Shown here: in pieces, positions 39,631 through 64,000 of the stretch
Position numbering within the stretch: position 1 is the first letter of the stretch
Layout of the letters: each line of letters opens with the position of its first letter
IMG/VR virus record: IMGVR_UViG_3300025679_000005
Origin: a virus
Taxonomy: Duplodnaviria > Caudoviricetes
Length of the DNA: 64,000 nucleotides
Strand: one strand, 5' to 3'
Translations under genes and position numbers: made by a program
Notes under the pieces: generated by a model
The model's database searches: none
What the model was told of the DNA's origin: nothing
What the model saw: only the letters and a program-made list of their open reading frames with translations

Positions 39631-39915
39631 ATGGCCAACTTCAAGCTAGACCAGATCCAAAGCACTTCCTCGGGCATGGACGCCTTTTTCGAGTCGGAAC
39701 CGGCGATCGTGACTCCCTTGGGTCAGAAGACCGCCGCAGTCGCTAAGCCTCATCGCATTCGTGTGGCCTCACTGGGCCAGCTCAACGAGTTCACTAGGGT
39801 GGCCTCGGACCAACTGATCCACAAGTCGACCAATGACCTCTGGTCTATCCGCAAGGAAGGCGAAGAGTTCTACATCGAGCGCCAGTTCGACAACAGTTCC
39901 CCAGTAAAGGGCTGA
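39631..39915 (+). CDS. Small virion-module protein
   Basis: GAGG SD; RVAS repeated; LIHKSTNDLWSI. Confidence 0.7.
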   Translation: MANFKLDQIQSTSSGMDAFFESEPAIVTPLGQKTAAVAKPHRIRVASLGQLNEFTRVASDQLIHKSTNDLWSIRKEGEEFYIERQFDNSSPVKG

Positions 39916-39918
39916 ACC

Positions 39919-41268
39919 TTGAGCAACCGAGACCTTATCAAGCGCGTAATGGCGAAGACCGCTACTGTTCAAAAGACAGCAGCGTTTCCGCCATTCGCTG
40001 AGAACGGCCCGCCCCAACCGCCTGAAGAGGATGGGGGTGGTGGCAACAGTCCTGTTGGCGGCAAGAGGAACATTCCGAAGGATCATCCTTACGATCCCAA
40101 GGCTTTGAAGCCGATGGCCACAGCCCTCTGGGCAGCCAGTGTCAGTTTGGGCCACGCCCTGACGGCTTATCGTCACCTCAGCCGCTTGAAATCCGCTACC
40201 ATCAGCCCTGATGGTATGTTGGGTGGGCGTGGCTACGTCATGGGAGTGCCCGACGTACGCAAGAAGCTCTACGCAGCCTGCGAGGCCTTGAGTGCTATCA
40301 CCGACACCCTCCACGACGAGATCACGGCTCCTCATTGGCGCCCAAAGTTGGCGCTGTTGGACGAGACTGATGCCGAGGAGATCGAACAGTACCTAGAGAA
40401 GTCTCAAGGGATCCTCGACGATCCGGAGGCGGAGGTCGAAGAAGAAGAGGAAGAGATTGAGGGCGGCAAGGACAAGCCGGAGAAAGAGCCGGAAGAGGCT
40501 TCGAGCATGCCAGACGGTGGTAGCGGCAACGAAACCAGCCAGGCTGTCCCGATGATGCGCCCGAAAGAGGCCTCCTTCAACCCCTACGATCGCACCGCCA
40601 ATTCCTCGGTTTCCCCAGGAGCTTTGGGTGGGCCCAGGGTTGAGCACCTAGACCGTGAAGACCAGCCGGACCCGGAAATGGCCTATGATGGTTGGGGGTA
40701 TCCCTCAATGATCGAACACCAGGAATCTGAGAATGGTGAGGGTAACCTTAGTGATCGCGGAGCTGGTTCGGGTATGCCAGGGGCAGTGACCGACACGACT
40801 CCGACGGAGGCCTATGACTTTGGTCTGGGCTACGGAGCTAACGGCCAAGGTGCCGGTGGTTACGGGAACCCTTCAGGTGAGGGTAACGGCACGAAAGGTG
40901 TGTTCGGACCGACCAGCGGCCTTCCAGGCGGTGGCTCAGGGTCGTCCGGGGACACCACCCCAGAGTTCAATGCCGAGGTCAGTGATCGTCATTCAATGGA
41001 TTCACTGCCCAACGATGATCAGCCTCCGGTTGCCCGTTCTGACTATTATCAGGGAGATAAGGGCAACATGGTGAATGATTCGGGCCCGATGGCTCAATCG
41101 GAGATGCCCGCTGAGCCGACCCCAGGTGGCGAGATGTCTCCCAGTATGATGAATACAGACTACACGTACACTGACATGGAAACACCGTACGTACGCTACG
41201 ACTATACGACCCCCAACTATCGGCCGGATCCCCTCCACAATTGGCCCGAAAAACAGCAGACAGGATGA
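39919..41268 (+). CDS. Probable internal head protein: helical N-terminus and a G/P/D-rich disordered tail
   Basis: 449-aa ORF in the structural block; KTA, KEAS and RTA motifs. Confidence 0.7.
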   Translation: MSNRDLIKRVMAKTATVQKTAAFPPFAENGPPQPPEEDGGGGNSPVGGKRNIPKDHPYDPKALKPMATALWAASVSLGHALTAYRHLSRLKSATISPDGMLGGRGYVMGVPDVRKKLYAACEALSAITDTLHDEITAPHWRPKLALLDETDAEEIEQYLEKSQGILDDPEAEVEEEEEEIEGGKDKPEKEPEEASSMPDGGSGNETSQAVPMMRPKEASFNPYDRTANSSVSPGALGGPRVEHLDREDQPDPEMAYDGWGYPSMIEHQESENGEGNLSDRGAGSGMPGAVTDTTPTEAYDFGLGYGANGQGAGGYGNPSGEGNGTKGVFGPTSGLPGGGSGSSGDTTPEFNAEVSDRHSMDSLPNDDQPPVARSDYYQGDKGNMVNDSGPMAQSEMPAEPTPGGEMSPSMMNTDYTYTDMETPYVRYDYTTPNYRPDPLHNWPEKQQTG

Positions 41269-41271
41269 ACG

Positions 41272-63193: not shown

Positions 63194-63273
63194 TTCAGCC
63201 TGAGACTCCGTACCTTTAAATCCAAATGTGAATCTGTCTACCCAGCAACAGCCCATTTTAGGAGAACATAACA

Positions 63274-63873
63274 ATGCCTCTATCTCTCGGCCAAGGCTCG
63301 GGTGACTTCAGGGAAACTTCTGGTCGCGTGCAAATCTTCCACGTCGGTACCCGCAACAGCGTTGGTATCTTGACGGCGGACGCTTTCACCCAGGCGAATC
63401 CTGTGAACGTCACAGCCGGTGCCAACGTCAGCACAACGCTCGCAGGAATCAGCAAGAAGGGCGTCCTCGGCGCTTCCTTCGCCTTCTCCCGTCCCGATGC
63501 CGGTAACGGCTTCCACGGTGGCCCTCTGTTCAGCGGCGGCAGCGCCGTTGCTGCCCAGAAGCCCCTAGGTCTATTCATCAACGACTCGCTAGGCAATGCC
63601 TTCGAGAACACCCCAGGCGTTGCCTCGGGTCGTGGCCCGTACCTCTGTGGTTACGGCACGGTTGGTGTTTCGATCTGGGAGACTCAGGTTCAGGTCGGTG
63701 CAAGCACCGCTCTGACATACGCAGCTGGTGACAAGCTCTATGCTTCTGTCAACGGCTTCGTCACCAACGTCGCTGCGGACGCAAACGAAGTGTCTGCCCC
63801 GACCATCATCGGCATCCTCAAGGTTGCCCCAGACGCGAACAACTCGCTGATGGTATTCGACCTCCGCATCTGA
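63274..63873 (+). CDS. Capsid decoration/cement protein
   Basis: AGGAG SD; small G/A/T-rich beta protein directly upstream of the capsid gene; LTYAAGDKLYAS..G.VTN...IIG. Confidence 0.7.
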   Translation: MPLSLGQGSGDFRETSGRVQIFHVGTRNSVGILTADAFTQANPVNVTAGANVSTTLAGISKKGVLGASFAFSRPDAGNGFHGGPLFSGGSAVAAQKPLGLFINDSLGNAFENTPGVASGRGPYLCGYGTVGVSIWETQVQVGASTALTYAAGDKLYASVNGFVTNVAADANEVSAPTIIGILKVAPDANNSLMVFDLRI

Positions 63874-63907
63874 GCGGCGATCAGGTCCAATAAAGGAAAA
63901 CCCAGTC

Positions 63908-64000
63908 ATGCCACAGCAAGTTTCTAACGAAATCAAGCAGCAGATCATCAGCGAGTACATCAAGACCGCCGCCGGTCGCGCCAAGCTCGCCGCTTCGATG
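63908..64000 (+). CDS. Start of the probable major capsid protein (MPQQVSNEIKQQIISEYIKTAAGRAKLAASM...), truncated by the window
   Basis: AAGGA SD; canonical order protease-scaffold-decoration-capsid; only 31 codons visible. Confidence 0.65.
   Translation, partial: MPQQVSNEIKQQIISEYIKTAAGRAKLAASM

Follow-up and report, generated by a model that had tools for sequence, protein, structure and literature searches.

Cleavage codes of prohead proteases are known as such, and those of three kinds of virus are relevant here. The herpesvirus assemblins (MEROPS S21; pUL26 of herpes simplex virus (HSV) and pUL80a of human cytomegalovirus (HCMV)) cut their release and maturation sites at (V/L/I)-x-A↓S, where the arrow marks the cut bond, and all the assemblin-fold protease codes known to us have this P3-x-P1 format. 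The T4 code, read by gp21 (MEROPS S77), is L/I-x-E. The prohead proteases of phiKZ (gp175) and SPN3US (gp245) also cut at Glu-ending x-x-E sites, with one three-residue code used on the capsid protein, the scaffold, the protease and many internal proteins, and with N-terminal propeptides or capsid-targeting sequences and self-cleavage of the protease (PMC10052503). Only these Glu-ending codes (T4, phiKZ and SPN3US) have so far been mapped in large phages. Here we describe a different three-residue motif, [KR]-x-A, which recurs in the head proteins of a huge soil phage represented by a 155-kb contig (IMG/VR record IMGVR_UViG_3300025679_000005), of which one stretch of 64,000 nt was analysed (referred to as the window; coordinates are on the window scale, with negative values for contig positions upstream and values above 64000 for positions beyond it).

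From sequence comparisons and a structural model, we suggest, with a probability of about 0.7, that [KR]-x-A is the P3-x-P1 code of the phage's own assemblin-fold prohead protease, which would cut after the Ala. Both the cutting of this bond in this phage and the choice of the sites used are things we infer. The novelty would lie in the Lys/Arg-x-Ala specificity and in its occurrence in a protease family which curated databases lack. We found no paper stating such a specificity, nor one that gives any cleavage code for phage G and its relatives, and a paper on actinobacteriophage capsids was silent on cleavage. The one published datum that bears on it is the length of the mature capsid protein of phage G.

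The motif was over-represented in the head-module proteins (encoded from 39.6 kb onward on the plus strand) when compared with counts expected from shuffling each protein with its own composition kept. These contain 134 copies of [KR]xA where 93.4 were expected (z 4.75), and the excess grows when the following residue is included, with 35 copies of [KR]xA[SA] (15.8 expected, z 5.2), 22 of [KR]xAS (6.4 expected, z 6.1) and eight of [KR]TA[SA] (0.8 expected). The non-head proteins of the window have no excess (115 copies vs 123 expected), so the comparison of head with other proteins proposed in the original prediction comes out in its favour. Local Ala and Lys richness is not the cause, because other spacings, the reversed order and an Asp/Glu swap give no excess ([KR]A, [KR]xxA, Ax[KR] and [DE]xA are all flat in the head module). 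An unbiased scan of 1600 residue pairs also placed KxA (z 3.5), RxA (z 3.2) and AS (z 4.2) among the top pairs, and did so in the head set only, and the AS excess is limited to copies preceded by Lys or Arg ([^KR]xAS reaches only z 1.4). Across the contig, the z value for [KR]xA is 4.64 in the head module, -0.41 in the 77 kb upstream, -0.86 in the non-head part of the window and 2.27 in the 13 kb downstream, and no excess is seen in the 147 other proteins encoded upstream of the head module. The codes of the better-known systems are not enriched in the head set, with z values of 0.89 for the T4-type [LI]xE, -0.95 for the phiKZ-type [SAG]xE and 1.2 for the herpes-type [VLI]xA, while the HK97-type K[ST] is depleted (z -1.95); [LI]xE is enriched instead in the non-head proteins (z 4.5).

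The same signal was found in the conservation of individual sites. We assembled twelve head families (those of the upstream head genes came from a second scan with a 662-residue head protein as the query), made them non-redundant at 90% identity, and counted as conserved any alignment column at which at least 70% of the sequences fitted a two-class residue pattern. This gave 36 conserved [KR]xA sites, compared with 6, 8 and 17 at spacings of 1, 3 and 4, and with 10 in the reversed order at the same spacing. Among 121 residue-class pairs, [KR]xA has the largest excess at its own spacing over the mean of the other spacings. Six non-virion families show no such excess (four conserved sites vs 6, 5 and 9 at spacings of 1, 3 and 4). 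Lys and Arg replace one another at P3 of the conserved sites, P2 varies with a preference for Leu, Thr, Val and Ile, there is a mild hydrophobic tendency at P4 and P5, and Ser is preferred at P1'; the flanks vary and indels intervene around the motif, which is itself retained. It should be noted that a P3-x-P1 code fits binding as an extended strand, because residues two apart face the same side of the strand, and that the known codes of this protease fold share this geometry.

The candidate enzyme is encoded between the portal gene and the scaffold and capsid genes (portal 50589, protease 59029, scaffold 61922, decoration 63274, capsid 63908), and the head gene order is identical in phage G and in the Tunturiibacter phage Tunturi_5. 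Its features in the window are:

59029–61866, plus strand: prohead protease with intein (PHROG 18299)
59029–59334, plus strand: N-extein
59335–60600, plus strand: intein (C103 to N524)
60601–61866, plus strand: C-extein
60673–60675, plus strand: His549 (YVEH), candidate catalytic residue by invariance
60826–60828, plus strand: Ser600 (LSMG), candidate catalytic residue by invariance
59041–59049, plus strand: candidate self-site SKYA7↓N
59137–59145, plus strand: candidate self-site DKKA39↓N
61156–61164, plus strand: candidate self-site GKAA712↓R
61492–61500, plus strand: candidate self-site LREA824↓V

Most orthologs lack the intein and are about 500–560 residues long (His549 and Ser600 correspond to His126 and Ser177 of an intein-free ortholog). 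The YVEH His and the TLSMGC Ser lie about 50 residues apart and are invariant in alignments of 27 and 53 sequences. PHROG 18299 'head maturation protease' is the sole family match (6.8e-11). A Pfam search with an intein-free ortholog returned no family at E ≤ 1, the S77, S78 and S21 models included, and searches of PDB sequences with phmmer and a family profile gave no match. By sequence the protease appears to belong to a distinct family, and a search of 1.8 billion representative proteins yielded at least 1429 sequence clusters of it.

A model of the protease domain alone, built with AlphaFold 2 (AF2) from the 53-sequence alignment, had a mean predicted local distance difference test score (pLDDT) of 88.6 and a predicted template modelling score (pTM) of 0.83, and superseded a full-length model from 27 sequences in which the catalytic domain was poor (pLDDT 40–60). 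In this model the domain has the fold of the herpes assemblins and T4 gp21. The closest structures by VIA-align were pseudorabies pUL26N (4v08_A; Z 10.0, root-mean-square deviation 3.2 Å over 131 residues), the varicella-zoster virus (VZV) protease (1vzv; Z 9.7), T4 gp21 (5jbl_C; Z 9.4, 128 of 166 residues) and the HSV-2 protease (Z 9.0), and the first 37 rows were all assemblins or gp21 with the next fold at Z 6.0; the Foldseek E-values for these matches were only 4e-3 to 1e-2. A full-length ortholog model contains a confident helical C-terminal domain (residues 345–516).

Three conserved copies of the motif bracket the protease domain, in segments at its borders that were modelled with low confidence and are probably flexible. 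The first lies within residues 1–8 as M-A-F-x-[KR]-[YFT]-A (A7 kept in 33/33 orthologs), the second about 10 residues before the domain in otherwise hypervariable sequence (A39 in 30/33), and the third, [KR]-A-A, directly after the domain at the start of a hypervariable linker (A712 in 33/33). This arrangement extends to the wider family, in which 136 of the 145 representatives starting with Met have the first site (as M-x-F-x-[KR]-[YTF]-A) and 139 the second. Where the end of the domain has a recognisable anchor (125 representatives), [KR]xA follows within 45 residues in 121, and [KR]AA lies 27–34 residues past the domain in 78, compared with 3.5% by chance; it is here that the model turns disordered.

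We also note a Cys/His cluster, SMGC...C..CGN...DE..LC.H (60826–60930), which directly follows the LSMG Ser and is invariant in the 53 family members; it is present too in phage G gp19, E3 gp77, I3 gp103 and Tunturi_5 gp331. From its sequence it looks like a zinc-ribbon-like insert, of a kind we have not noticed described for assemblin-fold proteases.

The capsid protein provides the link to a mapped cut. Its features are:

63908–64789, plus strand: major capsid protein of 293 residues, of which only the first 31 codons (63908–64000) are in the window
63962–63970, plus strand: site IKTA21↓A
63983–63991, plus strand: site AKLA28↓A

The IKTAAG peptide named in the original prediction is at 63959, within these first 31 codons. 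In 61 unique relatives T20-A21 and K26-L27-A28 are invariant, with Arg in place of K19 in five. The protein is 84% identical to that of LR745208 (485 kb), 47% to that of Tunturi_5, 38% to phage G gp27 and about 28% to those of the cluster C mycobacteriophages and E3. Phage G capsid protein has 282 residues (31.2 kDa) and, from N-terminal sequencing, a mature form of 255 residues and 28.2 kDa (Hua et al. 2017, PMC5646251, Table 1). We calculated a mass of 28.17 kDa for gp27 residues 28–282, and because both the mature length and the mass fit, the cut can be placed at GRVALA27↓Q28. In a MAFFT alignment this aligns without gaps with GRAKLA28↓A29 of the window capsid protein, and the same place is occupied by GRQKLA↓A in Tunturi_5, KQAKLA↓H in I3 and RKAKLA↓S in E3.

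As an observation in its own right, the capsid protein is under unusually strong constraint. It has 532 relatives in viral contigs, of which the best 80 (loci L002–L081) are 93–99% identical and found on contigs of up to 529 kb, while the head genes adjacent to them share only 40–85% identity (i.e. they differ by 15–60%).

The excess is also seen in the cultured relatives. In Tunturi_5 the 'DNA ejection protein' gp328 has 25 copies (13 expected), the scaffold-like gp332 has 20 (7.9 expected) and the 'minor head protein' gp272 has 13 (6.3 expected), whereas the sheath, tail fibres, terminase and polymerase have no excess. In phage G there are 10 copies in the gp19 protease (3.5 expected), eight in gp21 (3.9 expected) and 16 in gp7 (9.3 expected), and three copies lie within the first 57 residues of the portal protein. 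Two protease–scaffold fusions are similarly rich, E3 gp77 with 20 copies (11.2 expected) and I3 gp103 with 31 (18 expected). These proteins (L116:5629–8316, 895 residues, and L115:4036–8262, 1408 residues, respectively) consist of a protease domain fused to a long motif-rich C-terminal region, a polyprotein arrangement which resembles that of herpes pUL26. Tunturi_5 (PP885688.1, L110) is the closest cultured relative by capsid protein and infects an Acidobacteriota host from tundra soil, which provides a lead to the host range of the uncultured clade. Its gp328 lies upstream of the protease gene in a place corresponding to that of a 958-residue protein in the window, which is a likeness of position.

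Compared with the described systems, the protease is closest to the herpes assemblins, which are the best structural match of its domain. It would share with them the P3-x-P1 format, Ala at P1, a preference for Ser at P1', a self-site followed by a C-terminal tether after the protease domain, and a scaffold processed near its C-terminal tail (the last two being predictions here). It differs in having Lys/Arg where the herpes P3 is hydrophobic, in the Cys/His cluster after the Ser, in the intein present in this genome, and in belonging to a bacterial virus. With T4 gp21 it shares the fold, and with the T4, phiKZ and SPN3US proteases it would share a single three-residue code for many head proteins, N-terminal propeptides and self-cleavage, but P1 is Glu in those phages and Ala here, and the phage has a small HK97-type capsid protein rather than a gp23-like one. 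Phage G (gp19 protease, gp21 and gp27 capsid protein) has a protease of the same family, including by eye the SMGC...C..CGN...C.H segment, and differs in the P3 Ala of its mapped site, its Firmicute host and its AT-rich genome. The likeness to HK97 (gp4 protease, MEROPS S78, and gp5) lies in the HK97-fold capsid protein, which has a weak match to the Pfam Phage_capsid family. The candidate catalytic pair here, His before Ser and about 50 residues apart, is also reminiscent of the S78 proteases. In contrast, no Pfam S78 match was found at E ≤ 1, the scaffold is a protein of its own with no delta domain present, and HK97 cuts after Lys.

The other head-module features, with candidate sites in those that have them, are:

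39628–39915, plus strand: family-less protein of 95 residues, with R45-V-A47↓S (39760–39768)
39919–41268, plus strand: family-less acidic Gly-rich protein of 449 residues, candidate internal head protein, with AKTA15↓T and QKTA21↓A (39955–39981), PKEA218↓S (40564–40572), DRTA227↓N and RGA282↓G
41272–43260, plus strand: family-less protein of 662 residues, with RTA93 (41542–41550) and LKTA488↓S (42727–42735)
43257–43649, plus strand: family-less protein of 130 residues, with an N-terminal RRVVARF-KQA16↓D (KQA at 43296–43304)
43278–43304, plus strand: [RK]-V-V-A-R-[FY]-(K/L)-x-A peptide of this protein, found again at 68366, 68691 and 69883 beyond the window
43646 onward, plus strand: further family-less protein
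44263–47625, plus strand: large terminase with a helicase-like large insert
47881–50137, plus strand: three decoration-like paralogs around an HNH gene
50589–53942, plus strand: portal protein with intein (PHROG portal match, Pfam intein matches)
50712–50741, plus strand: portal N-terminal sites ERLA44↓R and IRTA51↓S, directly before a Gly-rich linker
53978–56854, plus strand: Lys/Glu/Pro-rich protein of 958 residues, candidate internal or ejection protein, with PKTA705↓S (56084–56092) and IKAA937↓N (56780–56788)
56888–57283, plus strand: small protein of 131 residues, with VL-KTA76↓KV (57107–57115)
57961–58671, plus strand: small protein of 236 residues, with LREA90↓ST (58222–58230) and RKSA165↓T (58447–58455)
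61922–63193, plus strand: Gln-rich scaffold-like protein (probable ATG at 61922; longest open reading frame from 61835, from which residues are numbered), with EKTA121↓A, EKKA136↓A, PKKA151↓S, IRLA179↓A, KQAG/KEAG repeat units and TRTA406↓S (63044–63052)
63274 onward, plus strand: decoration-like protein

All of the example peptides named in the original prediction were found in translated genes where it had placed them (those of the portal protein within 50589–53942), but its view that the motif occurs at domain boundaries in nearly every head gene was overstated. In per-protein shuffles the excess is confined to the proteins at 39628, 39919, 41272, 56888, 57961 and the scaffold (61835), is weak in that at 53978, and is absent from the terminase, the portal protein as a whole and its core, the HNH genes and the decoration paralogs; the tail proteins have none either.

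The scaffold has 17 copies (5.4 expected, p<0.002), with A121 kept in 39/41 orthologs, A136 in 38/41, A179 in 35/41, A406 in 39/41 and A151 in 26/41 (just over 60%). The ortholog forms are EKTA[SA], xKKAx, TRLA and [VT]RTAS[TM] (35–39/41) and PKTASE (26/41), with a Gln-rich middle that cannot be aligned, and TRTA406↓S precedes a conserved C-terminal tail of 46 residues. The release of many small peptides or domains, as originally predicted, is plausible for this protein. In the 131-residue protein, [KR]-x-A is found in all 32 non-redundant orthologs with eight different P2 residues (T, S, Q, M, E, A, N and L), and is recreated as RRQ-A across a deletion of 12 residues. The 236-residue protein has seven copies (2.3 expected, p 0.002), one of them in a linker of variable length which is [KR]-x-A-[SA] in most orthologs despite indels, and A165 is kept in 26/30. 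The 95-residue protein has three copies (1.0 expected) and an [IVT]-[KR]-V-A-S-[LIV] site in 17 of 18 non-redundant orthologs, and the 449-residue protein has seven (2.8 expected, p 0.012), with A21 kept in 16/18 and A218 in 15/18 orthologs between variable flanks. The 958-residue protein has 24 copies (17.5 expected, p 0.06), with the A937 column kept in 18/25 orthologs, again with variable flanks, and the portal ERLA site is conserved in 9/11.

The 662-residue protein has 17 copies (8.6 expected, p<0.002), of which ten are kept in at least 60% of 19 orthologs, with A93 and A488 in all 19. By eye it apparently consists of three internal repeats, each running from a [KR]xA helix to a Cys-rich segment (DCxxG...CxxC), and no family match was found for it. 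More generally, PHROGs returned no match for the scaffold or the three large family-less proteins, and Pfam searches with eight other head proteins gave only the weak Phage_capsid match as a useful result.

Beyond the window, the peptide [RK]-V-V-A-R-[FY]-(K/L)-x-A of the 130-residue protein is found again in the products of the genes at 68138, 68679 and 69862. It is N-terminal in three proteins that are otherwise unrelated and internal in the 68138 protein, and looks like a leader or loading tag ending in a putative cut site. Two more proteins of the contig, at -40816 and -32835, contain looser internal R-V-[VA]-A-R-[FY] copies.

Two further observations concern the genes around these proteins. 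The three divergent paralogs of about 175 residues (47881–48405, 49053–49616 and 49613–50137) separate the terminase from the portal gene and are split by the HNH gene (48409–49098); an earlier note on this DNA relates them to the decoration-like gene at 63274, and they are not enriched in the motif. The portal protein and the protease each contain one LAGLIDADG-type intein.

Several points weigh against reading [KR]-x-A as a cleavage code. About 93 of the 134 head copies (some two thirds) are expected by chance, and because of this a single unconserved copy means little. The motif was picked after the data had been seen, which is mitigated by the spacing controls and by the independent genomes. 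Some conserved copies lie in folded regions, such as RKIAELCGH in the protease domain and the repeat copies in the 662-residue protein, and probably have a structural role, as may several sites in the apparent folded repeats of the latter. Finally, the sole mapped site, GRVALA↓Q of phage G, has Ala at P3 and Arg at P5, with RVA two residues upstream, and it follows that Lys/Arg at P3 may be dispensable or that the sequenced terminus had been trimmed. We nonetheless regard protease cleavage after [KR]-x-A as the most likely reading, supported by the head-limited excess, the conserved positions, the bracketing of the protease domain, the assemblin/gp21 fold and the alignment with the phage G cut.

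Other explanations of the motif must be weighed against this. It could instead be a docking or capsid-targeting signal which loads proteins into the prohead, bound uncut by the capsid interior, the scaffold or the protease. Short shared leaders do end in the motif (MAFxKYA in the protease, and RRVVARF-K-x-A in at least four other proteins), and the cut site of T4 overlaps with its targeting sequence. We nevertheless consider this unlikely, as many copies are found inside the scaffold and internal proteins and just past the protease domain, where they have no obvious loading role, three residues is short for a binding tag, and the aligned phage G site is actually cut. It is also conceivable that these are protease sites in which a different bond is cut, such as the one after the Lys or Arg (trypsin-like, or like the Lys↓Ser of HK97, in which gp5 is cut after Lys103), with the Ala a P2' preference. 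The basic residue is indeed as conserved as the Ala, but the mature phage G protein of 255 residues fits a cut at Ala27 (a cut at Arg23 would give 259 residues and 28.5 kDa), Ser is enriched after the Ala only where Lys/Arg is at -2, K[ST] is depleted in head proteins, and the herpes assemblins, which are the closest folds with a known Ala code, cut after Ala. A different bond is on these grounds distinctly unlikely.

It is very unlikely, in our view, that the motif has no dedicated function and arises from the composition, repeats or secondary structure of head proteins that are Ala/Lys-rich and partly disordered. The enriched proteins are Ala/Lys-rich and partly repetitive (the KQAG units of the scaffold and the three apparent repeats of the 662-residue protein), and this explanation also gains from the post hoc choice of the motif. 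Against it, spacings of 1, 3 and 4 and the reversed order have no excess in the same proteins, Lys and Arg are enriched independently, sites are conserved where their flanks vary, and the excess is replicated in phages with 28–47% capsid-protein identity. A purely compositional origin was considered and is ruled out by the spacing controls. The explanation to which we give the least weight assigns the reading of the motif not to the 59029–61866 protease but to a different one, either of the host or a second one encoded by the phage. Staphylococcal phage 80alpha uses a host protease, and huge phages encode several proteases of their own. Phage G, for example, encodes five (PMC12484599). However, the motif tracks the assemblin-fold family across Bacillus, Actinobacteria and Acidobacteriota hosts, for which one shared host enzyme is unlikely, and it flanks the domain of the assemblin-fold protease itself.

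If [KR]-x-A is the code of this protease, maturation might proceed as follows. The scaffold, protease, portal and internal proteins would co-assemble within the capsid shell, where the protease would bind flexible segments as an extended strand, with the side chains of the P3 Lys/Arg and the P1 Ala facing the enzyme, and would cut after the Ala, mostly before Ser, Ala, Asn or Gly. Cuts at two sites would free it from its N-terminal leader, and a cut at the KAA site from the helical tether domain at its C-terminus. The capsid protein would shed its first 21–28 residues, and the scaffold would be cut at four or more conserved sites and in the KQAG repeats, giving pieces that can leave the shell and leaving the 46-residue tail, while the propeptides of internal and ejection proteins would be trimmed.

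A broader possibility, which we offer tentatively and think somewhat likelier to be wrong than right, is that [KR]-x-A↓ is the cutting code shared by a very large group of phage head proteases which curated families do not see. Members of this group are found in phage G, in cluster C mycobacteriophages, in a phage of an Acidobacteriota host and in the huge soil phages whose capsid proteins are nearly identical. The leaders (MAFxKYA and RRVVARF-K-x-A) would then make the packaged and processed head proteome readable, and the Ala at P1 and Ser at P1' would be shared with the herpes assemblins, possibly by common origin. The code is directly testable in cultured relatives, including phage G, Tunturi_5 and the mycobacteriophages Bxz1, Myrna and I3. 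If such an Ala-ending code with Lys/Arg at P3 holds for the phage G-like lineage, the mature capsid protein would be defined for structural work, and sequence alone would predict which proteins are loaded into the capsid, trimmed and possibly injected in hundreds of uncultured huge phages. Substrate preference would then be a second likeness, besides the fold, between the phage and herpesvirus proteases.

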